From IMG/VR virus record IMGVR_UViG_3300042895_002216: DNA of 64,000 nucleotides; one strand, 5' to 3'. The stretch's first letter is position 1. Each line of letters opens with the position of its first letter. The stretch is from a virus (lineage: Duplodnaviria > Heunggongvirae > Uroviricota > Caudoviricetes). The notes beneath the pieces are model-generated. The model was not told where the DNA came from. It was given only the letters and a program-made list of their open reading frames with translations, and did not search any database. Positions 3,829 through 59,598 of this stretch are shown piece after piece. The position numbers and the translations under genes are program-made.

Positions 3829-3851
3829 TTACTACTATATAAAATTAAAGC

Positions 3852-3878
3852 AAAGGCTTCCACATGGAAGCCTTTGTT
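3852..3878 (+). terminator. intrinsic terminator
   Basis: AAAGGCTTCC-acat-GGAAGCCTTTG hairpin. It lies inside the annotated 5' end of the 3818 ORF, which argues for the downstream start at 3893. Confidence 0.5.
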
Positions 3879-3892
3879 GGTATAGTAGAATA

Positions 3893-4417
3893 ATGGAATA
3901 CGAACAACTCATTCAAGGCTGTATTGAAAACAATAGAGAATACCAAAAGACCCTGTTCGATAAGTTTGCTGGTAAATTCATGACTATCGCAAAGAGGTAC
4001 ATGAAAGACCCTATGTTAGCCGAAGACGTATTGATGGAAGGATTTTATAAAATATACAAGAATCTTGGGAAATTCAAAGGAGAAGGTTCCTTTGAAGGGT
4101 GGATGAGACGAATCATCGTGAATACTGCGCTTACTAAACTCAAGCAGAACAAGCACGAGTTTAATGAGTGTAACTTAGTAACAGCGGAGGCAGTCAGTAT
4201 AGATCCAACTTACTATGAAACAGCATCAGCCGAAGAGTTAATGTCTCTGATTAGCACTCTTCCGATTGGATATCGTACCGTTTTTAACATGTACGTAATT
4301 GACGGATTTTCCCATAGGGAAATTGCAAAGGAACTTAACATACAAGAAGCCTCAAGTAGATCACAGCTATTTAAGGCAAAGGATTTTTTACAAAAACGAA
4401 TAAACCCAAATACATGA
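3893..4417 (+). CDS. ECF-type sigma-70 family RNA polymerase sigma factor
   Basis: Region-2-like segment (FDKFAGKFMTIAKRYMKDPMLAEDVLMEGFYKIYKNLGKFKGEGSFEGWMRRIIVNTA) and region-4-like HTH (YRTVFNMYVIDGFSHREIAKELNIQEASSRSQLFKAKDFLQKRI). Start set after the terminator. Confidence 0.8.
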   Translation: MEYEQLIQGCIENNREYQKTLFDKFAGKFMTIAKRYMKDPMLAEDVLMEGFYKIYKNLGKFKGEGSFEGWMRRIIVNTALTKLKQNKHEFNECNLVTAEAVSIDPTYYETASAEELMSLISTLPIGYRTVFNMYVIDGFSHREIAKELNIQEASSRSQLFKAKDFLQKRINPNT

Positions 4418-6980: not shown

Positions 6981-7403
6981 ATGATAGCAGAAAACCGAAA
7001 AGCCCGACACGAATACACATTTTTAGAGACATGGACCGCTGGGATCTCCTTAACTGGATCAGAGGTCAAGTCAATTAAGGCGGGTAACCTTGACTTTACT
7101 GGATCCTGGTGCGAACTTCGGTCAGGTGAATGCTTCTGTCGAGAACTGTACATAAAAGAATCAACCTCAGCATACAGTCACCAAGGTAAACGAGAGAGGA
7201 AGCTACTCTTAACTAAAAAGGAACTAAAGAAACTAAATAAACTGATGGACAGGGGCCTCACAATCGTTCCAGTAAAGATCTTCGTTAACTCGTCAGGTTT
7301 AATTAAGATTGCGATTGCTCTAGCCAAAGGAAAGAAGGATTGGGATAAGCGACATGTTATTAAAGAACGAGATCTCAGCCGAGCTTTAACCTCTGAATAC
7401 TAG
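6981..7403 (+). CDS. smpB: SsrA-binding protein SmpB
   Basis: NRKARHEYTFLETWTAGISLTGSEVKSIKAGNLDF ... RKLLLTKKELKKL ... IALAKGKKDWDKRHVIKERD aligns motif-by-motif with bacterial SmpB. The TAGTATATTAT motif at 6963-6973 sits immediately upstream, so the mRNA is probably leaderless. Confidence 0.85.
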   Translation: MIAENRKARHEYTFLETWTAGISLTGSEVKSIKAGNLDFTGSWCELRSGECFCRELYIKESTSAYSHQGKRERKLLLTKKELKKLNKLMDRGLTIVPVKIFVNSSGLIKIAIALAKGKKDWDKRHVIKERDLSRALTSEY

Positions 7404-14001: not shown

Positions 14002-15837
14002 ATGGCATCAAACAAAGAAATCAGTAAAAAGTACCAGTTACTTGACGAGATCGAACACGTTCTGAAAAGACCGGGTATGTACATTGGCTCGACTAAACCT
14101 CACACAGGAAACGAATGGATCCTTGAAGATGATGTTTACGAAAAATACGAGCTAAGCTACAATCCAGGATTTTTGAAGTTATTCGATGAAATCATTTCAA
14201 ACTCAGTGGACGAACACAAGAGAACTGGTAAAATCAATACAATTAAAGTAAACGTTACTCTCGATACAATTACGGTATGGGATAACGGCGGAATTCCAGT
14301 AGTACAACACCCTGACCATAAAGTTTGGATTCCTGAATTAATCTTCTCTAATCTTAGAGCCGGTTCTAATTTCAATGACGATGAAGGTCGTACTGTCGCT
14401 GGAACAAATGGAGTTGGTGCATCGCTAGTAAATATCTTTTCAAAGAAGTTTATTATTGATACAGCAGACGGCAAGAATAGACTTTTACAAATCTTTACAG
14501 ATAACATGTCAAAGAGAACCTCTGCTAAGATTTCAAAAACGGCTCAAGGCTTTACTGAAATAACTTACGTACCTGATCTTGCTCGTTTTGAAATGGAAGA
14601 GATTGACTCGGCTCATTGGAAAATGATGCGTAAGCGAGTAATCGATATTGCTGCTGCAAATCCTGGACTTAAATTAGAATTCTGTGGAGAGAAATACAAG
14701 TTTAAAACATTTAAGGAGTACGTTGATCTTTACGTAAAGGATTCCATTTGGGAAAAGTCAAAGGACTGGGAGTTTGCAATGGGAGTTTCAAAGGATGGAT
14801 ACCAATCAATATCGTTCGTTAACTCAATTCAAACAAAAGACGGTGGAACTCATGAGAACTATATCTTGAATCAGGTTATTGAGCATCTCAGAGTTATGAT
14901 AAAGAAGAAGCATAAAGTTGATGTTAAACCTTCTGAAATCAAGAATCACATATTCCTTTTTATAAATTGTACAGTAATTAATCCAGCATTCTCTTCGCAA
15001 ACTAAAGAGAAGCTTATTACTGAAGCAAAAGAATTTGGAACCAAGCATGACGTAACTGAAAAGTTCGCAAAAGCAGTCTTTACATCAGAAGTAATCCAGT
15101 CTCTACTTGATTGGATTGAACAAAAGAAAAATGCCGAGGAACGAGCAGAGCTTCGTAAACTAAACAAGTCCTTGGCGAATACAAAAGTTTTAAAATTAAT
15201 TGATGCAAAAGGTAAGGATCGTAGCAAATGTGTCTTGGGAATATTTGAAGGTATGTCAGCACTATCTGCCGTTCGTAAATTCAGAGATCCTCAAAATTTT
15301 GGGGCCTTTCCATTAAAAGGTAAGTTCTTAAACGTCAGTGAGATGACAAACTCTGGAGTCATCCAGAATGATGAGGTCGTCCAGCTTATGGCATCATTAG
15401 GAATCAAATTAGGAGAGGAACCGGGTGATCTGAGATATGGAAAAGTATACATCTATACTGATGCAGATCCAGACGGAGACTCTATTGCAAGTCTACTAAT
15501 CAACTTCTTTAATAAGTACTGGCCGGAACTATTTAATCAGGGCAGAATCTTTAAGGTAATGACCCCATTAGTTGTAGCTAAGAAAGGAAAAGAGGTAAAG
15601 CCATTCTATTCAAATGACGAGTACTCTGCATGGGAAAAGAAAACCGGCGCAAGGGGCTGGGATGTTGAATACAAAAAGGGTCTTGCTGCACTAGAGGATG
15701 TAGAGTACAGAGACATTATTCACAGCCCAGTTCTAGTTAATATACAGAATGACAAGCTGTACAAGGACAGTTTATCAAACTGGTTCGGGTCAGATTCAGA
15801 ACCACGTAAAGAGAAACTACTTAAACTTTCAATATAA
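14002..15837 (+). CDS. type II DNA topoisomerase large subunit (ATPase + Toprim; T4 gp39 / GyrB-ParE homolog)
   Basis: RPGMYIGS and IISNSVDE (GHKL ATPase). Toprim FEGMSA and YTDADPDGDSIASLL. TAGTATAATAA at 13899-13909. Confidence 0.85.
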   Translation: MASNKEISKKYQLLDEIEHVLKRPGMYIGSTKPHTGNEWILEDDVYEKYELSYNPGFLKLFDEIISNSVDEHKRTGKINTIKVNVTLDTITVWDNGGIPVVQHPDHKVWIPELIFSNLRAGSNFNDDEGRTVAGTNGVGASLVNIFSKKFIIDTADGKNRLLQIFTDNMSKRTSAKISKTAQGFTEITYVPDLARFEMEEIDSAHWKMMRKRVIDIAAANPGLKLEFCGEKYKFKTFKEYVDLYVKDSIWEKSKDWEFAMGVSKDGYQSISFVNSIQTKDGGTHENYILNQVIEHLRVMIKKKHKVDVKPSEIKNHIFLFINCTVINPAFSSQTKEKLITEAKEFGTKHDVTEKFAKAVFTSEVIQSLLDWIEQKKNAEERAELRKLNKSLANTKVLKLIDAKGKDRSKCVLGIFEGMSALSAVRKFRDPQNFGAFPLKGKFLNVSEMTNSGVIQNDEVVQLMASLGIKLGEEPGDLRYGKVYIYTDADPDGDSIASLLINFFNKYWPELFNQGRIFKVMTPLVVAKKGKEVKPFYSNDEYSAWEKKTGARGWDVEYKKGLAALEDVEYRDIIHSPVLVNIQNDKLYKDSLSNWFGSDSEPRKEKLLKLSI

Positions 15838-16220
15838 TGACAGACAACAAAACGTTAATCCTTGCAGAGTTTGAAAAACTTAAAGGACAATTTGTAATCA
15901 ATGCAAGCTGGGATATCGAAAGATTAGTAGCAGTCGGAGAAGACGAGATGGACTATTACTGGATAACATACGATGGCCGAAAACTCAAATGGAATACTTG
16001 CGTTGGAGGTCTTATGCCACTTAAAGGCCATTTACGAGATAAAGATTATGCTGAGTTAGTTAGATTAGCTAAGCTAAACCATTTCGATCAGGCAACGGTT
16101 TGGGGAAATAGAAATCCGGAAGAGGCTGAAGCCTTTAATCAAAACCATATTGCTGAGCTTGTGCAATTACCCGAAGATCACAGGTTCCTAACGAAAGTTT
16201 GTCTAGAATTAAACTCATGA
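15837..16220 (+). CDS. hypothetical protein
   Basis: 127 aa. ATGA-coupled to neighbours on both sides. Confidence 0.5.
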   Translation: MTDNKTLILAEFEKLKGQFVINASWDIERLVAVGEDEMDYYWITYDGRKLKWNTCVGGLMPLKGHLRDKDYAELVRLAKLNHFDQATVWGNRNPEEAEAFNQNHIAELVQLPEDHRFLTKVCLELNS

Positions 16221-16909
16221 AAATAGAAGCACTATTCATATCAGACGTTCACCTTGGAAGTAAGGGCTCAAACGCGGCTGCGTTATTGGAAACGCTAAAG
16301 AAGTACGAACCTAAAAGGTTATTCATTGTGGGAGACTTCATTGACGGCTGGCTCTTGAAGAAGAGACACTATTGGACTCAAGACTACACTAACGTAATTA
16401 GAAAAATCTTGTCCTACTCAAAGAAGGGAACGATTGTAACCTACATTACTGGAAATCACGATGAGTTTCTAAGACACTATTCTCCACAGACTTTCGGTAG
16501 TAATATCGAAATCGTGGATGAAGTTATTTGGAAGGGATATTACATAACTCATGGAGACCTATACGATGGAGTCGTTAGCTTAAAATGGCTAGCTCATTTA
16601 GGATCAGCCGGTTATGAATTAGCAATTACCCTTGACCGATTCATGAAACGATTAGGATACAAAAAATCTCTGTCGAAATGGGCAAAGGATTCAGTGAAAG
16701 GTGCAGTTAAATTCATTACTTCATTTGAAGATCAATTAGTTTATCAAGCAAAACGCCGAGGTTGCAAAGGAGTTATATGCGGACACATACATAAACCTGA
16801 AAACCGAACGATTGATTCAATCCACTATCTTAACTGTGGAGATTGGATAGAAAATAACAGTTACATCATTTATGATAAAGGACATTTTAACCATTATAAT
16901 TCCCTGTAA
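16217..16909 (+). CDS. calcineurin-like metallophosphoesterase (LpxH-like)
   Basis: ISDVHLG, GDFIDGW, GNHDEF and GHIHKPE are the metal-binding motifs of the metallophosphoesterase fold. ATGA start overlap. Confidence 0.7.
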   Translation: MKIEALFISDVHLGSKGSNAAALLETLKKYEPKRLFIVGDFIDGWLLKKRHYWTQDYTNVIRKILSYSKKGTIVTYITGNHDEFLRHYSPQTFGSNIEIVDEVIWKGYYITHGDLYDGVVSLKWLAHLGSAGYELAITLDRFMKRLGYKKSLSKWAKDSVKGAVKFITSFEDQLVYQAKRRGCKGVICGHIHKPENRTIDSIHYLNCGDWIENNSYIIYDKGHFNHYNSL

Positions 16910-17598: not shown

Positions 17599-18741
17599 AT
17601 GAATGTAAACCAAATAAAAACAGAAATTCTTTCAGGTTTAACTATTGCAATTGCTCTTGTACCTGAAGCAATTTCATTTGCTTTATTAGTCGGAGCTTCT
17701 CCTCAAATTGGATTATGGGCAGCAGTCTTCATGGCTCTGTCTACTGCAATATTCGGCGGAAGACCTGGTTTAATTAGTGGAGCGACTGGGGCAACTGCCG
17801 TAATTATGGCCGGCCTCGTATCAATTGCTGGAATTGAATCGCTTTTCCTTGGAGTAGTAGTTGCTGGAATTATTCAATTGATAATTTGGGCTTCAGGTGC
17901 ATGGAAAATATTTAAAAAGATTCCGCCTTCTGCTATTTCAGGTTTCTTAATTGCACTAGCGATTATGATTTTAGTAAGCCAGTTTAAATACTTAACTATC
18001 GGTAATCCATCTTCTACTGGCCTAATATTAACTATATCAACTATATTATTATGCGCAGCTGCAATGATATGGTCCTCACGGAAATTTAGTTTTCCTCCAG
18101 CGTTAGTGTCGATTACAGTTGGTTGCTTAATGGGAATTCCATTAGGCTTAGCGACAGTCGGCGATCTATCGCCAGTAACCGCAAGCTTGCCAACGCTAGC
18201 TATCCCAACCTTTAGTTGGAGTCTGCTATTGACAGTCTTACCGTATTCATTCGGGATGGCTGTGTCTGGCTTAACTGAATCTCTGTTGACTGTCGATACT
18301 GTGTCTCATAAATTAAATGAACACGGCGATAAAGCAAAAGAGACATTTGCTCAAGGGCTTGGTAATATAGTTAGCGGATTCTTTGGAACAATGGGAGGCT
18401 GCGTCCTAGTCGGACAGACTAATTTAAACGTAAATGCTGGAGCAAAGCATCGACTCTCTGGAATAGTTGCAGGGATTGGGCTCTCTCTAATTATTCTATT
18501 GTTTGGGAAATGGATTGAACAACTACCGCTAGTTGGATTAATTGGAGTAATGTTGGTAGTTGTATATCAAACTGGGGATTGGCAAAGCATAAAATCAGGA
18601 AATAAACTTAACTTATTGAGTATTATATTGACAGTTATTATTTCGTTAGCTACTCATAACTTAGCAATCGGTGTAATCATCGGGTCAATTGTATTCTATT
18701 TTAGTAAATTAATATTAAAGCATGACACACGTAAAGAATAA
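17599..18741 (+). CDS. polytopic membrane protein, SulP/anion-permease-like
   Basis: About 10 predicted TM helices. The N-terminal GLTIAIALVPEAISFALLVGASPQIGLWAA resembles the SulP permease core. No STAS domain. Confidence 0.5.
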   Translation: MNVNQIKTEILSGLTIAIALVPEAISFALLVGASPQIGLWAAVFMALSTAIFGGRPGLISGATGATAVIMAGLVSIAGIESLFLGVVVAGIIQLIIWASGAWKIFKKIPPSAISGFLIALAIMILVSQFKYLTIGNPSSTGLILTISTILLCAAAMIWSSRKFSFPPALVSITVGCLMGIPLGLATVGDLSPVTASLPTLAIPTFSWSLLLTVLPYSFGMAVSGLTESLLTVDTVSHKLNEHGDKAKETFAQGLGNIVSGFFGTMGGCVLVGQTNLNVNAGAKHRLSGIVAGIGLSLIILLFGKWIEQLPLVGLIGVMLVVVYQTGDWQSIKSGNKLNLLSIILTVIISLATHNLAIGVIIGSIVFYFSKLILKHDTRKE

Positions 18742-20083
18742 AACAGTAACTGAATACTTAGATCAGGACTATGCGATGTACGGAATGTACACGTTAGAAA
18801 ACCGGGCAATTCCTTCTGTAATAGATGGTTTCAAACCTACTCAGCGTAAAATCATTTATATCTCAGATAAAGTCTGGAAATCAGGCAATGAAAAGCCATT
18901 AAAGATATTCCAGTTAGGTGGTAAGATCGCAGCAGATGCCCACTACCATCACGGTGACGGGTCTCTAAATGGTGCAATCATTGGGATGGCTCAGTCATTT
19001 AAGAATTCATTACCTCTTCTTGACGAGATAGGCCAGTTCGGATCTCTAAGATCTCCTGAAGCTGGTGCGGCTCGTTATATTTCAACTAAACTTACTGGAA
19101 ATTTTAGACTTCTTTACAAGGATTTTGAATTGCTTGAGAATCAAGTCGAAGAAGGAAATACGATTGAACCTAAATTCTTCTTGCCAATTATCCCAACCGT
19201 TCTACTAAACGGAAGCTCAGGTATTGCAGTAGGATTTGCCACTAACATATTAAATCGTAATCCATTAGACTTAGTAGACTCATGTCTTAAAGTATTAGAT
19301 GGCAAGAAAATAGGCAAACTGCTTCCATGGTGGAGAGACTACATTGGCCCAGTCGAGTCAGTCGTTGGAACTAACCAGTACATTATGCGTGGAGTATACG
19401 AAGTTCTGAATACTACTACTGTCAAGATTACAGAGCTTCCGCCATCAATGACTTTTCAGAAATACGAAGTTCATTTGAATACTCTACAAGATAGAGGAAT
19501 TATTGTTTCGTACGATGACAATTCTTCAAATGGAATCAACTACACTCTTAAATTTGCAAGAGCTACACTAGCTGACCTAATTGGAAAAGGCCGGCTCGAC
19601 CAAACCCTTAAGATGATTGAGACTGAAACTGAGAACTTAACCTGCTTAAATGAAAAGGGCAAGCTTGCAATCTTTGAGGACATTACTCAAGTGGTAGATT
19701 ACTTTGTAAACTTTAGATTAAGTTTCTATGATAAACGCAAAGCATTCTTAATCAAGAAGTACGGTGAAGAATTAATTTACTTATCGAACCGAGCTAAATT
19801 CATTAAGCTTATTATTGATGGTAAACTTAAAGTAAATAACGTTCCACGTAAAGAGATCATTCTCTACCTGCAAACGGCAGACTTCGACGAAGTTAATGGA
19901 TCGTATAACTACTTACTCAACATGCCAATCCACTCTCTGACTAAAGAAACTTACGAGCAATTATTGAAAGAAGTTGCTGATATTAAATCGCTATTAGTCG
20001 ATATTAAAAAGAAGGATCCAACTGAGATGTATCGAGAAGATTTATTTGAGCTAAAGAAAAACCTAAAGTATTCTTCAAAGTAA
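18722..20083 (+). CDS. type II DNA topoisomerase DNA-cleavage subunit (T4 gp52 / GyrA N-terminal homolog)
   Basis: RAIPSVIDGFKPTQRKIIY (GyrA-like). Candidate active-site Tyr in AARYISTKL. Confidence 0.8.
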   Translation: MTHVKNKTVTEYLDQDYAMYGMYTLENRAIPSVIDGFKPTQRKIIYISDKVWKSGNEKPLKIFQLGGKIAADAHYHHGDGSLNGAIIGMAQSFKNSLPLLDEIGQFGSLRSPEAGAARYISTKLTGNFRLLYKDFELLENQVEEGNTIEPKFFLPIIPTVLLNGSSGIAVGFATNILNRNPLDLVDSCLKVLDGKKIGKLLPWWRDYIGPVESVVGTNQYIMRGVYEVLNTTTVKITELPPSMTFQKYEVHLNTLQDRGIIVSYDDNSSNGINYTLKFARATLADLIGKGRLDQTLKMIETETENLTCLNEKGKLAIFEDITQVVDYFVNFRLSFYDKRKAFLIKKYGEELIYLSNRAKFIKLIIDGKLKVNNVPRKEIILYLQTADFDEVNGSYNYLLNMPIHSLTKETYEQLLKEVADIKSLLVDIKKKDPTEMYREDLFELKKNLKYSSK

Positions 20084-20105: not shown

Positions 20106-20657
20106 ATGTTAAAATCATTTAGCCAATTCGTAACTGGATTATTTGAAAAGAAAGGAGACGCTCATAGTTATGGATGTGCAATGGTCTATTTCAATTTTCC
20201 AACAATGCCTGAACTGCATTCAAAAATAGATGAAGCAGATATCTACACAGAAGAGGGCGATCGTTCATACGGTCTTGAGGATGAACCTCATACAACTCTT
20301 TTATATGGACTTCATTCGGCAGATATTAATGACGCTAAGGTATTAGAGATATGTAAATCTAAACCAATCGGTCAACTGACTCTACATAATGCATCTCTAT
20401 TTGAGAATGCTAAATACGATGTACTTAAGTTTGATGTAGAAAATCCAGTGTTGGCTGAGATTAATGCAGAACTTAGTAAGTTACCTCACACTACTGATTT
20501 CCCAGACTACCATCCACATGCAACAATCGGGTACCTAAAGCCTGGAACCGGCAAGAAATACGTTGACTTATTTAATGGTAATCGGCATGAAGTCGCTGCT
20601 CATAAAATAGTTTATTCAAAACCTGACGACAGTCGAATCGAAGAAGAATGGAATTAA
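20106..20657 (+). CDS. 2H phosphoesterase superfamily protein (LigT-like) with degenerate leader
   Basis: Two H-x-[TS]-x motifs (EPHTTLLYG and HPHATIGYL) spaced as in 2H cyclic phosphodiesterases / 2'-5' RNA ligases. The N-terminus MLKSFSQFVTGLFEKKG resembles the leader family. Confidence 0.6.
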   Translation: MLKSFSQFVTGLFEKKGDAHSYGCAMVYFNFPTMPELHSKIDEADIYTEEGDRSYGLEDEPHTTLLYGLHSADINDAKVLEICKSKPIGQLTLHNASLFENAKYDVLKFDVENPVLAEINAELSKLPHTTDFPDYHPHATIGYLKPGTGKKYVDLFNGNRHEVAAHKIVYSKPDDSRIEEEWN

Positions 20658-27614: not shown

Positions 27615-29537
27615 TTATTTTTTTATGATTTTAGTAGAGTTAATTTGATCAACTGCCTGTAAAGAAGCAACGTATAATCCGCTAGTTAACTGATTAATAT
27701 TGGAAGAGTATACGTATTTTCCAGCTGGCATGTCTTGATCAAGTATAACAAATTGTTCTGATCCGTTTAGGTCAACGATTACTAACTTAACCATTCCGCT
27801 ATTCTTAACTGAGAAGTCAAAGCTTATCTCTCCAGTAGTTGGATTGGGAAATGCGGTAATTTCAAAGTTATCCAATTGACCAGAAGGTCCAGCCATTTTA
27901 GCAACGATTAAGATGCCGTTTGCTGCGGTGATTGATAAATCCCTAGATTGATTGTCTCCTGAGAATTTTCTAGAAGTATACAAAGGCGATGCCTCCCAAT
28001 CAATTTGAGGTTTAAGTGCGATAAATCTCAATTTAAAAACTTCATAATTATCTGGAATCATGTAGCTTTTGTTAGCTGATGGATCGTAACCGGCCCATTC
28101 GATAATTCCGCCAGTTGGATTGAATGAAGACATCCACTGCATTGATTTAGCAGAGTTAGTAATGTCTTTAAATTCCAATAAGGTCTGATCGTATAACATT
28201 GCTAATTGAAGAGACGAAATATCCTTTCCTCCAGTTTTAACAGTAACCGGTATTTCTACTAGATTTCCTGAATTTACAGAAAGATTAGGAAGATTAACTT
28301 CAATTGAGCTCGTTGGAAAATCGTATTCAACTGTCATATCAATTACGTTTTCAGTTTGAGCTGGGGTTCCAGCCGGTGGATTGATCATTACTTCAATTGG
28401 CGTTAAACGAGCCATGTTGTAACCCGTACCGTTTGCATCTCCTGGAACAAGTACGTAATATTGAACTGAATCAGGTTGTCCTGGTAAAATGTCGTAGTAG
28501 AAGTTTGTTACTCCAGCATAAGTTGAAGTATAGTTAGTCGATGGAGATCCTGTGATTGTTGTGTATTGGGCAGCAGTAAAGAACTTAACATCCTCAACGG
28601 CATTAGGCCATTCAGTGAATCTTCCAGCAATTCTACCAAATACTCCGTATGCATCAGTTATTGTTACGTTAGTTGAACCGTTAACATCTGCTGTATAGAA
28701 GTCGAATCCGGAAGGAGTCGCTGACCCTAACACCCATTGATTAATTAATTGAGCATCTGCTGTTGATATAACGTTTCCTACCGTCATCGTATCACCTTTA
28801 ATTGCAAGGCGTACATCATAATAAGTAGTATCAATAATTTCGCTAAATGCAAAATTTCCACTTAGGTCAGTTACGTACGTATCATGAGTTCCCCAAGTAC
28901 CTCCAGCTTTTACCTTTTTCTCAAGAGCTAAAGTTAAGTTCTTTGCTCCAGTTCCAGTAACGTTTGTAAATTTACCATGGAAGTCTAAAGTAGGCTGTTC
29001 CCATACACCGCCGTAGCTATGCTTGCTTAGAGTAGTATCTAAACCTGTCTGAGATGCAGCGAGTGTAGTAAAAGAAGCTGCGCCACTAAACGTAAGAGCA
29101 CTGATTGAGGGTAACGCATAAAACGATGCAGCTGCAACGTGAGTAAAGGTTATTTCAAAGGTTTCACCGTCCGCTAGAGTATAAGTACTGCTGTTTCCAG
29201 TATACACTAATGAAAGGGTTACGTAACCGGTAGCATTACTATCTACTGACTGTAAATATAAGTTAGTAGGCGATCCAACTAGCGCAACTGATGCACTAGC
29301 AAATGCATCCTTATCGTAAAATATTCGAGTTTGAATACCTGTGTATTTTGAGATAGTTGCATTCTTTAGCGTGATTCTGGCTTTGGACTGACCTAGCGTA
29401 CTTGTACCAACTTGATATGTCGTATCAATGATTGTCCAAATTCCTGCGCCTGGGGCAGGAGGTCCACTTTGAGCATAAACTCCAGTAGAGAGTGCGCACG
29501 TGACTAGTGCGAATAGAATAAAGATTATTTTTTTCAT
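27615..29537 (-). CDS. secreted protein with type IX secretion system C-terminal sorting domain
   Basis: Signal peptide MKKIIFILFALVTCALSTGVYAQ. The last ~80 aa (FPNPTTGEISFDFSV..VKLVIVDLNGSEQFVILDQ..LTSGLYVASLQAVDQINSTKIIK) matches the Por secretion tail (T9SS CTD) pattern. Confidence 0.7.
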   Translation of the reverse strand: MKKIIFILFALVTCALSTGVYAQSGPPAPGAGIWTIIDTTYQVGTSTLGQSKARITLKNATISKYTGIQTRIFYDKDAFASASVALVGSPTNLYLQSVDSNATGYVTLSLVYTGNSSTYTLADGETFEITFTHVAAASFYALPSISALTFSGAASFTTLAASQTGLDTTLSKHSYGGVWEQPTLDFHGKFTNVTGTGAKNLTLALEKKVKAGGTWGTHDTYVTDLSGNFAFSEIIDTTYYDVRLAIKGDTMTVGNVISTADAQLINQWVLGSATPSGFDFYTADVNGSTNVTITDAYGVFGRIAGRFTEWPNAVEDVKFFTAAQYTTITGSPSTNYTSTYAGVTNFYYDILPGQPDSVQYYVLVPGDANGTGYNMARLTPIEVMINPPAGTPAQTENVIDMTVEYDFPTSSIEVNLPNLSVNSGNLVEIPVTVKTGGKDISSLQLAMLYDQTLLEFKDITNSAKSMQWMSSFNPTGGIIEWAGYDPSANKSYMIPDNYEVFKLRFIALKPQIDWEASPLYTSRKFSGDNQSRDLSITAANGILIVAKMAGPSGQLDNFEITAFPNPTTGEISFDFSVKNSGMVKLVIVDLNGSEQFVILDQDMPAGKYVYSSNINQLTSGLYVASLQAVDQINSTKIIKK

Positions 29538-32092: not shown

Positions 32093-32371
32093 ATGTTAAT
32101 TATAACAGACTATTGGGCTCCATGGTGCGGTCCTTGTAAAGTAATGATGCCAGCTATTTCAGAATTATCGGAACGATTTAATGTACCTGATTCTCAAATT
32201 GAGATTAGAAAGGTAAACGTTGACGAAAATCCTGAACTTGCCAGTAAATTTGGAATCAGGGGAATCCCTACTCTTATTTTTGTTAAAGACGATCAAGAAG
32301 TAAAGAGACTTAGTGGTCTTAGAACAAAGAATCAGATACTTGAAGAAATCGAAACAATACAAAATTCATAA
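32093..32371 (+). CDS. trxA: thioredoxin
   Basis: WAPWCGPCK active site and overall thioredoxin length (92 aa). Confidence 0.8.
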   Translation: MLIITDYWAPWCGPCKVMMPAISELSERFNVPDSQIEIRKVNVDENPELASKFGIRGIPTLIFVKDDQEVKRLSGLRTKNQILEEIETIQNS

Positions 32372-33054
32372 TGGAAATTACATTTATAAGTGATACACAT
32401 TGGATTGTATCTGATCCAGTTAATACAGAAGACCTAAATGATCTTCTGCCTGGAGGTCCTATCTTGGTCCACGCAGGTGATGTATCTGGGCGTGGAACTG
32501 AGCGTGAAATTAGAGTATTCCTTAAATGGTTTAGTTCACAACCCTATATGCATAAGATCCTAATTGCTGGAAACCACGACTTCTTTTTTGAGGTAGCAAA
32601 ACCAGAGGAGGTTCAGGCTCTGCTTGCTGAGTATCCTGGAATTACCTACTTAAATGATAGTGGCGTAACGATTGAGGGTATTAAATTCTGGGGAAGTCCA
32701 GTAACTCCATTCTTTCATAATTGGGCATTTAATCGATATGAAAATGAAATAGGTCCACATTGGGATCTTATTCCGGAAGGAATTGATGTTCTGATAACGC
32801 ACGGGCCTCCTCATGGAATCTTGGATAAAACTATCAGAGAAGGTTGGAGCGTTGGTTGTAAAAGTCTAAAGGCTAAGGTTGATCAAATTAAACCCCAAGT
32901 TCATGTATTCGGCCACATACACGAAGAGATGGGCCAAGTAGAAATAGGCGGTACTACATTTATTAATGCGTCAGTGGTCGATGAACGATATCGACTATGG
33001 CATAATCGCCCGCCAGTTATTAACGTTGAACCAAGATCAGAAAATTTAGTATAA
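32371..33054 (+). CDS. calcineurin-like metallophosphoesterase
   Basis: GDVSGRG, GNHDFF, THGPPHG and GHIHE metal-ligand motifs. Confidence 0.7.
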   Translation: MEITFISDTHWIVSDPVNTEDLNDLLPGGPILVHAGDVSGRGTEREIRVFLKWFSSQPYMHKILIAGNHDFFFEVAKPEEVQALLAEYPGITYLNDSGVTIEGIKFWGSPVTPFFHNWAFNRYENEIGPHWDLIPEGIDVLITHGPPHGILDKTIREGWSVGCKSLKAKVDQIKPQVHVFGHIHEEMGQVEIGGTTFINASVVDERYRLWHNRPPVINVEPRSENLV

Positions 33055-33865: not shown

Positions 33866-34564
33866 ATGTTAATTAAAAATCAAACGCCATACCTTGGCAA
33901 AATTCAGTTGAAGTTCGAGAGATTTCCTCACTACACTGGCAAAACTAAATTAAATAAGATCCACTTGGATCTGGGATTTACTAAGTTAGTAAGCCGAATC
34001 CGACCTGAAAGAGATTTGGAAGGTTGGGCTGTAAATCCTGAATGTATTAAACAAATTGAAGCAACTACTGGGCTAAAGGTAGGAGTTCATAAGTTCGGAC
34101 CAGACGATGAGTACTCATTACCCAATTCATGCATGAATCCAGACGGAGTTTACGTTGGATCAATTGAAGAAGGTTGGTGGTACTACAACAATGGCCTCAG
34201 AGCAACAAAGGGATCTCATCCTCATACTGCATGGAGTAAGAAGGCAAAGCAGTGGATTGGTTATTCTCACCGTGCTTCTTGTGCATTCGGAAAAGGCGAT
34301 AAACTATTTGATGCTAAATGGAAACCTGCTGAACAAGACCTTCCTCAATACGAAAAGTTCTACGGCAAGCACCTGGACTCGTATTATAAAGAGTGCGAAG
34401 AATGGGCAAAGAGTACCTCTGACCATAAAGCGTCAGAAGAAGAAATGACCCTTGCTGGTTGGGCAGTAGATCATATTCCTTTTAGACTACGTGGTGCTAA
34501 GACAATTCATTCGTATGAAGATGCTTACAAGGCAGCAGTTAACTTTGCAAAATACGTATCGTAA
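33866..34564 (+). CDS. hypothetical protein
   Basis: 232 aa, W/Y/K-rich. No clear motif. Confidence 0.5.
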   Translation: MLIKNQTPYLGKIQLKFERFPHYTGKTKLNKIHLDLGFTKLVSRIRPERDLEGWAVNPECIKQIEATTGLKVGVHKFGPDDEYSLPNSCMNPDGVYVGSIEEGWWYYNNGLRATKGSHPHTAWSKKAKQWIGYSHRASCAFGKGDKLFDAKWKPAEQDLPQYEKFYGKHLDSYYKECEEWAKSTSDHKASEEEMTLAGWAVDHIPFRLRGAKTIHSYEDAYKAAVNFAKYVS

Positions 34565-46383: not shown

Positions 46384-47052
46384 ATGAAAATTACATTACA
46401 GCCTCATCAGCGAATATGGTTCACGTCAGATACTCACTACAAACACTCAAATATTTGTAGAGGAACGTCTAATTGGCCGGCCGAGAGTAAGACCAGAGAT
46501 TTCGATACCCTGGATAAAATGAATGATACGATTGTTAACAATATCAATCACCTAGTCAGCGAAGACGATATTCTTTTCCACTTAGGAGACTGGTCGTTCG
46601 GAGGATTTGATAACATCCAGGAGTTCAGAGACAGGTTGCTCTGTAAGAACATTCATTTGGTTCTAGGTAATCACGACCAGCACATCGAGAATGACAAGGG
46701 AGGAGTCAAGGCTCTATTTGCATCAGTGAATCATTACGTTAGACTGGAACTTACTGTTCCAAACGTGCCGAACGAAATAAATCCAGCGAAGACTATTAAG
46801 AAAACGTTTGTGCTATGTCATTACCCAATCGCAAGTTGGCACGATATGAACCGTGGAGTAATTCAATTACATGGTCACGTTCACTTAGGCCCACACAATA
46901 AATTACATGCAGGTAAAGCAATGGACGTTGGCATGGACGGCAACTTCATGGACCCATATTCTCTTCAAGAAATCGCAAAGATTATGAGAGACCGTCCAGT
47001 TAAGTGTTTGGTTTTACCGAACGATCACCATGAAACAAACGAAGGAAGATGA
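46384..47052 (+). CDS. calcineurin-like metallophosphoesterase
   Basis: GDWSFGG, GNHDQH and HGHVHLG motifs. Confidence 0.65.
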   Translation: MKITLQPHQRIWFTSDTHYKHSNICRGTSNWPAESKTRDFDTLDKMNDTIVNNINHLVSEDDILFHLGDWSFGGFDNIQEFRDRLLCKNIHLVLGNHDQHIENDKGGVKALFASVNHYVRLELTVPNVPNEINPAKTIKKTFVLCHYPIASWHDMNRGVIQLHGHVHLGPHNKLHAGKAMDVGMDGNFMDPYSLQEIAKIMRDRPVKCLVLPNDHHETNEGR

Positions 47053-49461: not shown

Positions 49462-50199
49462 ATGACAGCACCATTTGAATTTTACGAAGTAGGCGGAAAG
49501 GTAAGAGACGAGATCTTGGGACTTCAGTCCAAAGACGTTGATTACGTAGCCGTGCCGAAAGCAACTCTGCTTGAGGAATTTCCTGAGGCGGCTGATATGT
49601 TTGACTTGCTAGTTGACTACTTAACTCGTGAAAAATTCCAGATATTCCTGATCACCAAAGAATGTTACACAATCAGAGCAAAATTTCCAGACGGACATAA
49701 GTACCAAGGAGTTGCTGATTTTGTAATGTCTAGAAAAGAGACTGGATACGTGCCGTTTACCAGAACTCCGATCATTAAGCCTGGAACCCTATTCGACGAT
49801 TTACAGAGAAGAGACTTTACTCTTAATGCCCTGGCAAGAGAAGCGGACGGCTCGATCATTGACTACTTTGATGGGCTGACTCACTTGAAGCTTGGGCTAT
49901 TAGTAACGCCATTACCTTGCGAGGAAACGTTTCACGATGATCCTTTGAGAATCTTGAGAGCTATTAGATTTTCAATCACTAAAGGATTTACTATCCCTGA
50001 GGAAATGTCTCAAGTAATAAAGCACTACGATTACGAAGTTAAGATGTGTGTAGTATCAGCTGAGAGAATCAGGGAAGAGCTCTTTAAGTGTTTCAAACAT
50101 GACACTCATGCAACGATACTTAAGTTATCAGAGTACCCTTTCCTTATGGAATACATTTTTAGAACACAAATCTGGTTAAAACCAACAATGGAAGAATAA
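49462..50199 (+). CDS. tRNA nucleotidyltransferase (CCA-adding) head domain protein
   Basis: FYEVGGKVRDEILGLQSKDVDYVA is the polymerase-beta-type head-domain signature of class II CCA-adding enzymes. Only 245 aa. Confidence 0.7.
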   Translation: MTAPFEFYEVGGKVRDEILGLQSKDVDYVAVPKATLLEEFPEAADMFDLLVDYLTREKFQIFLITKECYTIRAKFPDGHKYQGVADFVMSRKETGYVPFTRTPIIKPGTLFDDLQRRDFTLNALAREADGSIIDYFDGLTHLKLGLLVTPLPCEETFHDDPLRILRAIRFSITKGFTIPEEMSQVIKHYDYEVKMCVVSAERIREELFKCFKHDTHATILKLSEYPFLMEYIFRTQIWLKPTMEE

Positions 50200-50753
50200 T
50201 GGAAGCAACAATAAATGGAAGAATAATGGAAGCAAAAATAAACTGGGTTCTAGACCAACATAGAGACACGAATCACATGTACGATAAGTACTTGCCTTAT
50301 GAATTTCATTTACGTATGGTCGTTGAAGTTGCAAAGAAATTTCAATCTTTAATTACGTATGAGAAAGATTTTGAGCATGTACTACTTGGAGCATGGGGCC
50401 ATGATCTTATTGAAGACACCAGAGTTTCATACAATGATGTTAAGCAGGCGCTTGGAGAAATGGCAGCAGATATTGTCTATGCGTGCTCAAACGAGAAAGG
50501 CAAGAGTCGTAATGATCGGGCTAACTACCGATACTACGATGGAATCAGAACAACGCCGTATGCGATATTCGTTAAGTTATGCGACCGAATTGCAAACGTG
50601 CAGTACTCAAAAATGTCTGGCAGCAGAATGTTCGAGATGTACAGAAAAGAAAATCCCGAATTCATGCAGCAATTAGGCTGGACGGCTGAAGAAAAATATC
50701 TTCATGAGTATGCCAATATGTTTGTATACTTAAGTAAATTATTCGAAGACTGA
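50199..50753 (+). CDS. HD-domain phosphohydrolase
   Basis: GAWGHDLIEDT is an HD motif. The protein lies immediately after the CCA head-domain gene, making a split two-ORF arrangement. Confidence 0.7.
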   Translation: MEATINGRIMEAKINWVLDQHRDTNHMYDKYLPYEFHLRMVVEVAKKFQSLITYEKDFEHVLLGAWGHDLIEDTRVSYNDVKQALGEMAADIVYACSNEKGKSRNDRANYRYYDGIRTTPYAIFVKLCDRIANVQYSKMSGSRMFEMYRKENPEFMQQLGWTAEEKYLHEYANMFVYLSKLFED

Positions 50754-50772: not shown

Positions 50773-51975
50773 ATGGAAAATCAAAACAGCGTATGTTACA
50801 TTGGAAAAGTAACAGAAATCAAGGCAATCGAAGGAGCTGACAATATTGAGTTAGCGATCATCGGTGGATGGAATTGTATTACTAAAAAAGGACTACACAA
50901 GGCGGACGAATTTGTTATCATTGCAACAACTGATGCAGTTATTCCGGAAGAGTTATCCGAAAAATTGGGAGTAACCGGTTACCTGCGTAAGGGCAATCGA
51001 GTTAGAACAGTTAAGTTGAGAGGAGTTTACAGTGAGTGTCTAATCATTCCGCTTAATGTGCTTGAAGGTTCAGAAGAAATGAAGATCGGAGTTAGTAAAC
51101 AGCCTTGGGGCGATCAATTACAGTTGGGCCCTTATGACGATGCACTCGTTATTGAAGAAGGAGTTGACGTTAGTGAGATGCTTGGAATTTTCAAGTACGA
51201 ACCGCCAGTTAGACAGGTCCAACTTGCTTCAGGTAAAAAGGTTCGTTATCAAGACAATCCAAACTTTCATGTCTACTACAAGTTTCCTAACTTGAAAAAT
51301 GTTAGTGGAATGTTTACTGAAGAGGATATTGTGCAAATCACGCGTAAGATCCACGGTACGAATGCACGATACGGTATAGTTAAGAAGAATCGCTTGTCCT
51401 TCATGGATAGGATTAAAAAATTCTTTGGATTCGCCGGAGAGCTCTTTGAGTACGAGTACGTTTATGGATCTCATAATGTCGAGAAGGGTTCTGATTCTCA
51501 AGGGTTCTATTCAACTGATGTCTGGAGAACAATTGCCGAGAAGTACGATATCAAGAACAGGTTGCTTACCTTAGCAAAAACTAAAAATAGGATTGGTGAA
51601 CTTGGAGCTGGTATTGTAATTTACGGAGAAATTTACGGTGCAGGTATTCAAAAGAATTACGAGTACGGTCTGACTGATATTGAATTCGTTGGATTCGATG
51701 CCACAGTAAACGGCAAATACGAGTCCACTATTTACACTGAATTCCTTTTCAAAGAAGCGCTAGAGTTACCTCACGTTGGAGTCCTATACACAGGACCGTG
51801 GTCACAAGAGACACAAGACCAGTTCGTCTTTGGTAATATGATCAAAGGAACTAAGGTGCCGCATGAAGGCATTGTTATTAAGCACATAAGCGGTGAGCGT
51901 AATCGAGTAGCAAAGGTAATTAATCCAGACTATTTGATTTACGGAGAAAAGCACGATATTGGAGACTCACATTAA
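50773..51975 (+). CDS. ATP-dependent RNA/DNA ligase-family nucleotidyltransferase (RNA-ligase-like)
   Basis: Candidate motif I KIHGTN, motif IV EGIVIK and motif V-like VAKVINP in the expected order and spacing. Confidence 0.5.
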   Translation: MENQNSVCYIGKVTEIKAIEGADNIELAIIGGWNCITKKGLHKADEFVIIATTDAVIPEELSEKLGVTGYLRKGNRVRTVKLRGVYSECLIIPLNVLEGSEEMKIGVSKQPWGDQLQLGPYDDALVIEEGVDVSEMLGIFKYEPPVRQVQLASGKKVRYQDNPNFHVYYKFPNLKNVSGMFTEEDIVQITRKIHGTNARYGIVKKNRLSFMDRIKKFFGFAGELFEYEYVYGSHNVEKGSDSQGFYSTDVWRTIAEKYDIKNRLLTLAKTKNRIGELGAGIVIYGEIYGAGIQKNYEYGLTDIEFVGFDATVNGKYESTIYTEFLFKEALELPHVGVLYTGPWSQETQDQFVFGNMIKGTKVPHEGIVIKHISGERNRVAKVINPDYLIYGEKHDIGDSH

Positions 51976-51989
51976 TAAAACAAATACAA

Positions 51990-52463
51990 ATGGAAGAAGA
52001 AAAATTACCGATCAGAATCTATTTAGATGACGTTCGAACACCAATTGAACAGGACTGGATAGTTGTTAGATCATACCAGGAGTTCAAGGACAAGGTGATG
52101 GAAATTGGATTAAAGAACATTCACATGATCTCATTGGATCACGACTTGGGTGACTCAGCTATGTCAGAGTACTTCACGAATGTAAGTCCTAACTATAAGC
52201 TAGACTACACGAACATTACTGAAAAAACTGGAATGGATTGCACTAAGTGGTTGGTGAATCAGTTCTACGACGAGAATCCAAAGAGAATTGAGATGAGTCG
52301 TTTCGATAAGCGTAATGTGCCGATTCGGTTTCCAGCAGTCTACGTACACTCAGCGAATCCAATTGGATCAGCGAACATGATGGGTTACATTAATAACTTC
52401 TTCATGAATGAGGGAGAACCTCAAAACTGCGTGAGAGTTCAGATACCTCACACGGTAATGTAA
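51990..52463 (+). CDS. hypothetical protein
   Basis: 157 aa. Confidence 0.45.
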   Translation: MEEEKLPIRIYLDDVRTPIEQDWIVVRSYQEFKDKVMEIGLKNIHMISLDHDLGDSAMSEYFTNVSPNYKLDYTNITEKTGMDCTKWLVNQFYDENPKRIEMSRFDKRNVPIRFPAVYVHSANPIGSANMMGYINNFFMNEGEPQNCVRVQIPHTVM

Positions 52464-52484: not shown

Positions 52485-53027
52485 ATGAAAGTTGTACAAG
52501 AATTTCCTAACGGGCTTATATCAGTTTATCCATCCGTGTTTGGCGATGAAAGAGGATTTTTTCTAGAATCGTTTAATCAGCTGAAATATTCTGAATTTCT
52601 TAATGAGCATTCATTTGTTCAGGATAATTTATCTAGATCCAAAAAAGGAGTCCTTCGTGGATTGCATTTTCAAGCTCCACCGTTTGATCAAGGAAAATTG
52701 GTTCAGGTAATTACAGGAAGCGTGTTGGATGTTGCGGTAGATATTCGTCGAGACTCTCCAAGCTACGGTAAATCCTTTCAAGTTGTATTAAATACGACTG
52801 ATCGCAATCAACTTTGGATTCCACCAGGCTTTGCGCATGGCTTCGTTAGCCTAGAAGACGACACTATTTTTTCCTATAAATGCACAAACGGTTATTCAAA
52901 AGAACATGAAGGCTGTATATTATGGAATGATGCGGACTTAGCGATTGATTGGGAAATTGAAAATCCTATCATTTCGGATAAAGATCAATTGGGAACCCCG
53001 TTTAAAGAGTTAATCAGCCCATTCTAA
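52485..53027 (+). CDS. rmlC: dTDP-4-dehydrorhamnose 3,5-epimerase
   Basis: FGDERGFF, GVLRGLHFQ and LWIPPGFAHGF are cupin RmlC hallmarks. Confidence 0.8.
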   Translation: MKVVQEFPNGLISVYPSVFGDERGFFLESFNQLKYSEFLNEHSFVQDNLSRSKKGVLRGLHFQAPPFDQGKLVQVITGSVLDVAVDIRRDSPSYGKSFQVVLNTTDRNQLWIPPGFAHGFVSLEDDTIFSYKCTNGYSKEHEGCILWNDADLAIDWEIENPIISDKDQLGTPFKELISPF

Positions 53028-53119: not shown

Positions 53120-53200
53120 GCCCTCTTGGCGGAATTGGTAGACGCGCTAGACTTAGGATCTAGTCTTAGGGTGAGAGTTCGAGTCTCTCAGAGGGTACCA
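53120..53200 (+). tRNA. tRNA-Leu (TAG), CCA encoded
   Basis: Leu-type D-arm GGCGGAATTGGTAGACGC. Anticodon arm CTAGA-CTTAGGA-TCTAG. 9-nt variable region. TGGGTATAATAAC at 53088-53100. Confidence 0.75.
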
Positions 53201-53353
53201 AACACATATCACAAATAAAAATGTGAGTTACTTTGAAATAGCCAATTATAAGCCAACATAAAGCCGTTGGGTACAGAAGGAGTAATTAACCGGAGTATAG
53301 GCAACAATTGTGACACTGTAACAAATACCCATTTGAGTGGTATGTTTTAAATA

Positions 53354-53472
53354 GTCAGGTGGCGGAATTGGTAGACGCTATGTGGTGCGGAACTCGCTTC
53401 GTTCACCACTCCCTTAGCGGGGAAAACAAAGGTAAGAGATGTGACCATGCAGGTTCGAATCCTGTCCTGACT
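53354..53472 (+). ncRNA. atypical 119-nt tRNA-like gene (possible intron-containing or insertion-bearing tRNA)
   Basis: Acceptor GTCAGGT/TCCTGAC. Leu-like D-arm (GGCGGAATTGGTAGACGC). Canonical T-arm. The central region is a ~45-nt extended hairpin (GCTATGTGGTG...CACCACTCCCTTAGC) instead of a normal anticodon arm. Confidence 0.4.
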
Positions 53473-53638
53473 ACGATTGTTAACACGCTTGCTTCGTGTT
53501 GAAATTGTCAGATAACGTGCAACGATAGTTTAAAGACTGTAGAAAAAGAAACACTGACTGGAAGGATTCTTATGGACGCATAAGAAGTAAAAGTCCACAA
53601 CTAAACCTACTTACAATTGGCAAGGTAAATTGAATTAA

Positions 53639-53666
53639 GGCGATCGATCTAACGGTCGCCTTTTTT
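53639..53666 (+). terminator. intrinsic terminator
   Basis: GGCGATCG-atctaa-CGGTCGCC followed by TTTTTT. TAGTATATTAG follows at 53667-53677. Confidence 0.65.
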
Positions 53667-59161: not shown

Positions 59162-59245
59162 GGAAGAGTAATTCAGCTGGCGCTGGACCTAGTCTTGAAA
59201 ACTAGTGGTACCTTCGGGTATGGGGATCGATACCTCACTCTTCCG
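59162..59245 (+). tRNA. tRNA-Ser (TGA), class II, unusual T-loop
   Basis: Acceptor GGAAGAG/CTCTTCC. Anticodon arm CTAGT-CTTGAAA-ACTAG. Variable hairpin TACC-TTCG-GGTA. T-loop ATCGATA is non-canonical. Confidence 0.65.
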
Positions 59246-59510: not shown

Positions 59511-59598
59511 GGAGAGTGAAGCAACAAGGTGTTGTCGCCGCCTGCTAAGCGAGCGGTTCCCGAAAGGGAATGGGGATCGAGACCTCCACTCTCCGCCA
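59511..59598 (+). tRNA. tRNA-Ser-like (GCT), class II, CCA encoded
   Basis: Acceptor GGAGAGT/ACTCTCC. Loop CTGCTAA with a weak anticodon stem. Variable hairpin TTCCC-GAAA-GGGAA. Same unusual T-loop (ATCGAGA) as 59162. Confidence 0.55.

Follow-up and report, generated by a model that had tools for sequence, protein, structure and literature searches.

Several small viral RNAs that do not decode are linked to transfer RNAs (tRNAs) or resemble them. The stable RNAs C and D of phage T4 ('species 1 and 2' of the T4 tRNA cluster) and the products of the TMER genes of murine gammaherpesvirus 68 (MHV68) are matured by host tRNA processing, and their genes stand among viral tRNA genes. However, their architectures differ from those described here: the TMER hairpins follow the tRNA-like unit instead of lying inside it, and the T4 and TMER genes are single, without hundreds of interchangeable cores. 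YrlA (RF02553) is a modular non-coding RNA that joins a tRNA-like domain to a second functional module and also occurs in phages, and that of Mycobacterium smegmatis is cleaved by RNase P and has CCA added to it (PMC4201824). In the engineered 'tRNA scaffold' of Ponchon and Dardel, the acceptor, T and D arms are kept, the anticodon stem-loop is swapped for a structured RNA, and the product is correctly processed and nuclease resistant in vivo (PMC3753655). Here we describe three genes, E1, E2 and E3, from a 64,000-nucleotide (nt) stretch of a Caudoviricetes virus (IMG/VR record IMGVR_UViG_3300042895_002216; this whole stretch is called the window in what follows), which are members of a large, phage-borne and apparently undescribed RNA family. 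On balance, their sequences favour a reading in which they encode three different non-decoding, tRNA-scaffolded small RNAs that are matured like tRNAs and carry a functional module.

E1 (53353-53473, + strand, 121 nt) is built on a Leu-type chassis. Its acceptor strands, AGTCAGG (53353-53359) and CCTGACT (53466-53472), pair perfectly and are followed by a discriminator A (53473); U8 and G9 lead into a D arm (53362-53378), TGGCGGAATTGGTAGACGC, that shares 19 nt without a mismatch with the D arm of the canonical tRNA-Leu(UAG) gene located 150 nt 5' of E1 (53120-53200, +), and the T arm reads GCAGG-TTCGAAT-CCTGT (53449-53465). An initial annotation of the window had described E1 as having a perfect acceptor stem, a Leu-type D arm and a canonical T arm, all of which we recover with the true start one base earlier, but it had placed a single extended hairpin of ~45 nt between the arms. 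Instead, the region between the arms (core, 53379-53448) comprises ~68 nt folding into three hairpins: H1 (53382-53409, +; GUGGUG-CGGA...UUCG-CACCAC), on which the minimum free energy and centroid structures agree, H2 (53410-53423, +; UCCCU-UAGC-GGGGA) and, after an A-rich linker, AAAACAA (53424-53430, +), H3 (53431-53446, +; GGU-AAGAGAUGUG-ACC). The 68-nt core is also present in an IMG/VR contig (L179) and in metagenome sequences (L221 and L222). The linker is invariant and H2 is unchanged in all of these homologues, while one G-C pair of H1 is replaced by A-U in L179 and L221 and a U-A pair of H3 by C-G in L221; in total, compensatory change is seen at eight pairs of the E1 type, of which H1 and H3 contribute one each. 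In L221 the E1-type core sits on a wholly different, fully complementary acceptor stem, TCCGGUG/CACCGGA. The CUUAG of H2 resembles the anticodon loop CUUAGGA of the adjacent tRNA-Leu(UAG) and is possibly a relic.

The tRNA-Leu(UAG) gene and E1 probably share one transcription unit, which likely ends at an intrinsic-terminator-like hairpin with a 10-base-pair (bp) stem and a T run, 165 nt 3' of E1 (53637-53662, +); three such terminator-like sites were found, against 0.4 expected from shuffles. The intervening non-coding stretch of 160 nt (53474-53636, +) holds a hairpin, AACACG...CGTGTT, and gave only weak, non-significant matches to small-RNA models.

E2 (2150-2251, +, 102 nt) shares the ends of E1 and has a different interior. 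Its acceptor 5' strand (2150-2156) is followed by A8 and G9, a mini D hairpin (2159-2171, UCC-AUUGGUU-GGA), a long irregular arm (2172-2222) made up of a closing helix, CCA/UGG, GAGU/ACUC and a variable tip, a T arm (2227-2243), the acceptor 3' strand (2244-2250) and a discriminator U (2251). The initial annotation had stated that the acceptor stem and T arm are the same in E1 and E2, and this is borne out by an exact 23-mer common to both, CAGGTTCGAATCCTGTCCTGACT, which spans the T arm and the 3' acceptor strand and has exactly two copies in the window, at 2228 and 53450, where shuffles predict none. An 18-mer from the E2 core is found in 42 IMG/VR contigs, which reduce to 28 unique sequences and define the E2 class. 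The class covaries in the acceptor stem, the T stem, the mini D hairpin (3 bp, with the loop AUUGGUU) and the closing helix of the long arm, with 98.7% of cells paired and 57 cells changed on both sides, values matched by none of 500 shuffles; pairing falls to at most 43% when the partner strand is slid. The same core is also found on the alternative acceptor stems AAUUAUG/CAUAAUU and AAUCAUG/CAUGAUU, the E2 arm sits on a Leu-type D arm in L139, and the discriminator of the class varies between A, G and U.

Upstream of E2, a non-coding stretch of 270 nt (1878-2149, +) contains a UUCG-capped hairpin (~2050-2065), a second hairpin (2114-2143) and the sequence AGTCAAT, which is similar to the chassis 5' end. 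Both E2 and this stretch are absent at the matching position of the relative L181, which has a membrane-protein gene there, upstream of an RNase H gene. We also considered the CACCUCC of E2 as an anti-Shine-Dalgarno mimic and ruled this out, the gene leaders of the phage being A-rich and G-poor, without a Shine-Dalgarno motif.

E3 (36982-37087, +, 106 nt) defines a third class. Its acceptor stem, GATTAGA/TCTAATC (36982-36988 and 37080-37086), encloses an invariant GCGUAAUG (36992-36999), a mini D hairpin (37001-37012, GGG-AUGGUA-CCC), an AAGUCC...GGUUG arm followed by an extra hairpin, and a T arm (37063-37079) with the loop TTCGAGT and a stem of 4 bp plus one mismatch, and is followed by a discriminator A (37087). 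The initial annotation's third oversized tRNA-like gene is therefore well founded: E3 has the 7-bp acceptor stem and the T arm, and no anticodon arm. The E3-class module (GCGUAAUG, mini D hairpin, AAGUCC...GGUUG, T arm) has 22 unique members, mostly of 75-81 nt and on an AGUCAGG acceptor stem; a 106-nt form like that of the window is seen in L219, with the acceptor stem AGCCAGA/UCUGGCU. Compensatory changes affect seven of the seven acceptor pairs and two T-stem pairs, which again none of 500 shuffles matched.

Each of E1-E3 thus has a tRNA acceptor stem, a discriminator and a 7-nt T loop, backed by covariation, and in none does an anticodon arm, with its 5-bp stem and its 7-nt loop containing U33, stand at the usual spacing from the D and T arms. 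With canonical class II tRNA-Leu (RF00005) the likeness extends to the 7-bp acceptor stem, U8, a D arm that is that of the window's own tRNA-Leu, A15:U48, G18G19, the 5-bp T stem with its UUCGAAU loop, A73, flanks of the same type and a location in tRNA islands. The difference lies in the missing anticodon arm and anticodon, with 68 nt in three hairpins replacing the anticodon and variable arms of E1, in the 3-bp hairpin that replaces the D arm in E2 and E3, and in the A8 of E2. YrlA differs in being built the other way round: its ends form a stem that binds Ro/Rsr and its tRNA-like part is internal, whereas the ends of E1-E3 form the acceptor stem and the module is internal. No rsr/TROVE domain was found among the window open reading frames scanned, and YrlA matches none of E1, E2 or E3. 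The engineered scaffold is man-made, and in it an extended anticodon stem forms the closing helix of the insert, whereas the natural cores generally are not helix-closed. A T-loop-anchored scan of the whole window returned no oversized tRNA-like element beyond these three.

The atypical tRNA-like genes of the initial annotation are real, and all three are members of a large family carried by phages. At least 120 viral contigs of IMG/VR contain the 23-mer, with up to seven exact copies in one 5-kb locus, but it is found in only 18 contigs among 185,579 bacterial and archaeal species represented by one genome each; all 18 are from metagenome-assembled genomes, and the largest share belongs to Bacteroidota bins. 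A search of 50,697 GenBank phage records gave neither a homologue of E1 or E2 nor a match to the chassis. Allowing three mismatches in the 23-mer, we collected 231 family copies, a count that is a lower bound, because exact-match scans are ascertained on conserved query strings, and 220 of them have a complementary 5' acceptor strand 55-320 nt upstream. The elements are 60-190 nt long in total (median 103 nt). What they share is a chassis, defined by the AGUCAGG/CCUGACU stem, an (A/G)CAGG-UUCGAAU-CCUGU T arm and a non-tRNA core, commonly with a tRNA-Leu D arm, U48 and A73, such that most copies read AGUCAGG-UG-GCGGAAU(U)GGUAGACGC ... U-(A/G)CAGGUUCGAAUCCUGU-CCUGACU-A. E1 and E2 match this definition exactly; E3 differs in its acceptor and T stems, but most members of its class use the chassis acceptor stem. 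Rfam holds no family covering these RNAs, and in 8 million papers and preprints searched by sequence string and keyword we found no description of them.

Between the constant ends, the cores are hypervariable. The 214 unique copies fall into ~181 clusters with unrelated cores of roughly 20-150 nt, and k-mer enrichment for a common core motif returned D-arm remnants only. On average, the cores are more structured than their shuffles (-0.176 vs -0.140 ± 0.004 kcal/mol per nt). Cores are also replaced in place: at one locus, six contigs whose flanks are largely conserved (mean column identity of 76% for the full alignment, with the cores counted) share an identical chassis but have four unrelated cores among them. 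Homing-endonuclease-like reading frames of the GIY-YIG/NUMOD type lie near chassis elements in 11 of 138 loci (e.g. L002:397-1195) and may bear on core exchange; as IMG/VR loci are short, such neighbourhood counts are local and not genome-wide.

Would such elements need to be functional RNAs at all? They might be tRNA pseudogenes in decay, scars of recombination, or repeats at the DNA level (integration or homing sites, for example) with a chance resemblance to tRNA ends, given that the acceptor strands amount to a short inverted repeat, that the GIY-YIG genes just mentioned lie nearby and that the thermodynamic z-scores of single elements are weak. Nonetheless, compensatory changes are present in the acceptor, T and D stems and in core helices across all three classes, the tertiary positions U8, A15:U48 and G18G19 are conserved, core sequence is kept across different acceptor stems, and the 3' ends have their matching 5' strand at a tRNA-like distance in all but 11 of the 231 copies. 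We regard an absence of function as extremely improbable.

Neither ARAGORN with default settings nor Rfam at its gathering thresholds called any of the three genes. In a comparison with Rfam at E ≤ 10, only the tRNA model matched them, without a match to Intron_gpI, ribozyme, tmRNA (transfer-messenger RNA) or Y RNA models. E1 reached 34.5 bits (cut-off 29) in sensitive mode only, with 51 nt in the place of the anticodon arm, while E2 and E3 scored 16.2 and 16.5 bits, under the 29-bit cut-off. Of the models in the Infernal check that the initial annotation had proposed, that for tRNA matches E1 in sensitive mode, and those for tmRNA and group I introns match none of the three.

The genes might still encode decoding tRNAs, mainly tRNA-Leu or suppressors, with inserts that the phage ligase, kinase and phosphoesterases would remove by cutting and rejoining; intron-containing tRNAs were among the explanations offered by the initial annotation. 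A minority of copies does resemble genuine tRNAs, with ARAGORN calling 27 of 180 representative copies as tRNAs compared with ~14 (range 8-23) when the cores are shuffled, and the excess of ~13 copies is mostly Leu, with anticodons UAA, CAA or UAG; healing and sealing enzymes are encoded, some family members carry inserts in the D loop too, and the CUUAG of the E1 H2 loop is shared with the anticodon loop of tRNA-Leu(UAG). One chassis element (L182:1048-1125, AGTCAGG/CCTGACT) is read by ARAGORN as having the anticodon UCA, and is a possible opal suppressor. However, more than 80% of the cores give no cloverleaf. Family-wide, 7-nt anticodon-like loops show no excess in the first core hairpins, and Leu anticodon motifs or relic loops are not enriched in the cores (z = 1.5). 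With intron detection switched on (ARAGORN -i), E1 is read as a tRNA-Ala(agc) with a 30-nt intron, but this call carries no weight because shuffled-core controls are called too (98 of 180 real copies vs 68 of 180 controls, ~38%, range 55-78). In that mode neither E2 nor E3 is called as such; the one overlapping prediction, a tRNA-Ile at 2040-2252, came at a reduced threshold and has a 5' end that differs from that of E2. The inserts of E1-E3 are only 28-70 nt long, and the window scans found no splicing endonuclease domain or group I intron. In a crude screen, arrangements like the bulge-helix-bulge, the splice signal of archaea, showed no consistent excess: E1, with 15 (shuffled mean 17.4), and E2, with 9 (11.7), fell below their means, and E3, with 23 (14.1), lay above its own. 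An anticodon arm is wholly missing from the conserved, covarying cores of E2 and E3. Splicing to a decoding tRNA thus appears to us very improbable, and the intron proposal gains no support, with no group I match, short inserts and intron calls close to the shuffled background.

What surrounds the elements is also tRNA-like. They are interspersed with canonical tRNA genes in non-coding islands of related contigs, 80% of copies have U at position -1, the discriminator is A, and the trailer begins with C in 98%. U at -1 is the base preferred by RNase P. A trailer C after the discriminator is likewise found in all 26 canonical tRNA genes that ARAGORN identifies in the window, which cover all 20 amino acids; only 10 of the 26 encode the full CCA, the other trailers being CAA, CUA, CGA, CAU, CAC or CUU, and the same C-N-N rule is seen in the tRNA-like genes. 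Most of these tRNAs must therefore have their CCA finished post-transcriptionally, and the window encodes a CCA-adding enzyme, split over two reading frames (49462-50753, +; nucleotidyltransferase head 49462-50199, HD domain 50199-50753; PF01743, PF12627, PF01966), which we infer to complete the CCA of E1-E3 and of the 16 canonical tRNAs without an encoded one. As a candidate promoter dedicated to each element, the Bacteroidota-type motif TAnnTTTG was rejected, since no more than 10 of 210 copies have it at the fixed offset of -12; because it is so rare there, most elements are probably co-transcribed. In several unrelated contigs (L030, L038, L077, L085, L010 and L061), a conserved ~25-nt motif, (T)GAC(G/A)NCTCGGAAAGACGAG(C/G)AACA, contains a small hairpin and ends 1-2 nt 5' of the element; it may act as a promoter specific to the phage or as a signal for processing.

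The chassis also bears on aminoacylation. Escherichia coli leucyl-tRNA synthetase (LeuRS) requires A73, A15:U48, G18G19 and A20a, and it charges tRNA-Leu variants without the anticodon and variable arms (PMC9976931). Among the 117 Leu-type core types, U8 G9 is kept in 115, U48 in 110 and A73 in 109, alongside A15, G18G19 and A20a, and the E1 sequence has the full LeuRS set: A73, A15:U48, G18G19, A20a and the elbow formed by the D and T loops. Hence, the Leu-type RNAs may be leucylated. The family might then consist of aminoacylated tRNA mimics acting on translation, that is, leucylated RNAs bound by EF-Tu that titrate LeuRS or EF-Tu, donate leucine to non-ribosomal reactions or, together with the phage SmpB, enter stalled ribosomes as a tag-less relative of tmRNA. 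The Leu-type chassis keeps what LeuRS needs and varies what LeuRS ignores, and the topology, with an acceptor, a D region, a long helix, a T arm and no anticodon arm, is that of the tRNA-like domain of tmRNA (RF00023), which is also charged independently of an anticodon. A full-length SmpB, including its C-terminal tail, is encoded at 6981-7403 (+), 4.7 kb from E2, and neither ARAGORN (-m 0 genes) nor Rfam finds a tmRNA in the 64-kb window, which is part of a genome; the initial annotation's statement that SmpB is encoded without a canonical tmRNA holds to that extent. In 7 of the 42 E2 loci, from two lineages, the E2-class RNA has a phage smpB gene at most a few kb away.

The initial annotation had gone on to suggest a non-canonical trans-translation RNA, which finds no support apart from this proximity to smpB and is unlikely. 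Positions 3:70 are U-A in E1, E2 and E3, so that the G3:U70 alanine identity pair is absent. An mRNA-like domain with resume and stop codons is absent from E1-E3, as are pseudoknots, inspection of the E2-class variants revealed no conserved reading frame and hence no frame with a conserved stop, and the RNAs measure 100-120 nt compared with ~350 nt for tmRNA, the models of which they do not match. The flanks retrieved around four close SmpB relatives contain no tmRNA either, and the E2 core is absent from the flanks of up to 10 kb around the four closest SmpB relatives, including L181, whose gene order is that of the window upstream of smpB; the linkage between SmpB and E2 is weak. Huge phages are known that carry an ordinary tmRNA with SmpB (PMC7162821), and the window is a partial genome. 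Moreover, E2, with A8, a mini D hairpin and a discriminator that is U here and varies in its class, lacks the Leu-type D arm, as does E3, and ~180 different cores would be left unexplained. That the RNAs act on translation as aminoacylated mimics is, in our judgement, quite unlikely.

A further explanation, in line with a candidate named by the initial annotation, is that the RNAs are decoys or sponges for host tRNA-targeting immunity or toxins, such as anticodon nucleases and acceptor-end enzymes, with the top half as bait and the diversity of cores as the trace of an arms race. Cleavage of tRNA is a common anti-phage strategy (PMC13056530), and the window and related loci are rich in genes for tRNA repair and maturation. 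Beside the CCA-adding enzyme are an RNA ligase of the Rnl type with a PHA02142 OB fold (50773-51975) and a cREC_REC cyclic-phosphate-processing protein (51990-52463), and elsewhere the window encodes an AAA_33 kinase (41806-42222), a 2H/LigT-like protein (20106-20657) and three Metallophos phosphoesterases (46384-47052, 16199-16909 and 32371-33054). Several genes of this repair and maturation toolkit recur beside E2-class RNAs in other contigs, the same genes being found near them in 4-10 of 42 loci, although this co-location may just be the common gene order of related huge phages. The replacement of cores at a fixed locus resembles diversifying selection. Yet the cores show no mimicry of an anticodon stem-loop, which would make them poor baits for anticodon nucleases, and a bait for acceptor-end enzymes needs no class-specific core, while those of E2 and E3 are invariant. 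We consider the decoy explanation unlikely; the broader category offered by the initial annotation, a non-decoding tRNA-like RNA with a regulatory or decoy role, is supported.

We therefore return to the reading that the elements are non-decoding RNAs carried on a tRNA scaffold, in which the module is the functional part. Each RNA retains the upper half of a tRNA, in which the acceptor stem of 7 bp stacks on the T arm and a D-type loop has a GG that can dock on the T loop. It would be excised from tRNA-island transcripts by an RNase P cut at the 5' end and by trimming at the 3' end and receive CCA from the phage enzyme, a maturation that would yield a nuclease-resistant, L-shaped handle. In place of the anticodon and variable arms stands a class-specific structured module, which is three hairpins and an A-rich linker in E1, one long irregular helix with invariant internal loops in E2, and GCGUAAUG...AAGUCC...GGUUG in E3. 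The module would bind a protein or an RNA, whereas the chassis would supply biogenesis, stability and possibly leucylation. The constant ends may also act as homology handles, through which modules are swapped between phages by recombination. We infer the expression, processing, charging and module binding of these RNAs from the sequences.

Several observations weigh against this reading. Folded as single sequences, the elements have energies that do not stand out (z-scores of -1.0 to -1.5) and are uninformative, and the core-closing helix is not enriched (2.70 vs 2.69 bp in shuffles), unlike the inserts of engineered scaffolds. No candidate partner emerges from the sequences: the cores of E1-E3 have no match of 12 nt or more to the rest of the window that would indicate an antisense target, BLAST of cores against ~1.9 Mb of related contig sequence returned mainly other tRNA-like elements and short matches at chance level, with no spacer-like targets, and even the most frequent neighbouring protein cluster reaches no more than 16 of 138 loci. 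For stability alone, a scaffold would not have to keep one and the same acceptor sequence across ~180 modules, a constancy that could reflect recent spread or recombination, or a sequence-specific partner. Finally, leucylation is not a property of the whole family, since E2 and E3 are without the Leu-type D arm.

The window belongs to a large phage genome of ~39% G+C with genes mostly on the + strand. A Bacteroidota host is suggested by a type IX secretion sorting domain on the protein at 27615-29537, by the gene leaders described above and by the nearest relatives; by topoisomerase II, the closest in GenBank are uncultured phages of 634-642 kb with 48-56% amino-acid identity, which belong to the Mahaphage clade, with Bacteroidetes as predicted hosts (PMC7162821). 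Two genes are candidates for counter-defence, a 2H/LigT/Acb1-like phosphoesterase (20106-20657, +) with a weak Acb1/2H match under the Pfam cut-off, and a protein of the Tad6 (Thoeris inhibitor) family (33866-34564, +). Genes of cellular type lie at 3818-4417, 14002-15837, 17599-18741, 18722-20083, 41139-41804 and 52485-53027 and encode a sigma-70 family factor, topoisomerase II/gyrase-like subunits, a sulfate permease family transporter, ClpP and a dTDP-4-dehydrorhamnose 3,5-epimerase. A tRNA gene at 59162-59244 (+), with an 8-bp acceptor stem, a 4-bp T stem and the anticodon UGA (Ser), is not called by ARAGORN and scores 47.9 bits with the Rfam tRNA-Sec model (cut-off 47 bits); it fits the '8/4' tRNA-Ser known from phages (PMC5389517). 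A possible further tRNA-Ser(GCU) at 59511-59598 (+) is reported by ARAGORN at a reduced score threshold only. Among the related contigs, one that carries an E2-class RNA also contains, in the same tRNA island, a YrlA-like Y RNA (L146:665-764; 38.9 bits, below the 69-bit cut-off) and, as a separate gene, the 5' part of a GOLLD RNA (L146:1787-1867; 55 bits) cut by the contig end; a freshwater-1 RNA is likewise a separate gene in a tRNA island (L016:4124-4186; 70.1 bits against a 72-bit cut-off). The 106-nt E3-class form of L219 is on the same 128-kb contig as L182, one of the SmpB relatives.

With more than 200 copies and ~180 core types in this sample alone, and with tRNA finders and Rfam missing these genes, large phages have in their tRNA islands a substantial amount of structured RNA that is unannotated. 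A fixed tRNA top half has been joined to different modules by engineering before; we did not find a natural case with a hypervariable module at fixed loci described in the literature searched, and there is a realistic chance that the organisation into a constant chassis and swappable modules represents a new kind of viral RNA system. A more far-reaching proposal, which we put forward tentatively and consider doubtful, is that a natural platform for RNA display operates in the huge phages of Bacteroidota, in which a constant, self-processing and CCA-tailed tRNA chassis, in its Leu-type version probably open to leucylation, would present hundreds of interchangeable structured modules, shuffled by recombination in the conserved D-arm, T-arm and acceptor sequences, with each module binding or inhibiting a different factor of the host or of a rival phage. 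If true, this platform would be the RNA counterpart of the fast-evolving repertoires of anti-defence proteins and a new class of modular viral non-coding RNA. The indifference of LeuRS to the anticodon raises the question of whether tRNA-Leu is a preferred chassis, and a further question is whether the modules target host defence or the translation machinery. The cores themselves constitute a natural library of RNAs that fold on a tRNA scaffold, which may be of use in RNA structural and synthetic biology.

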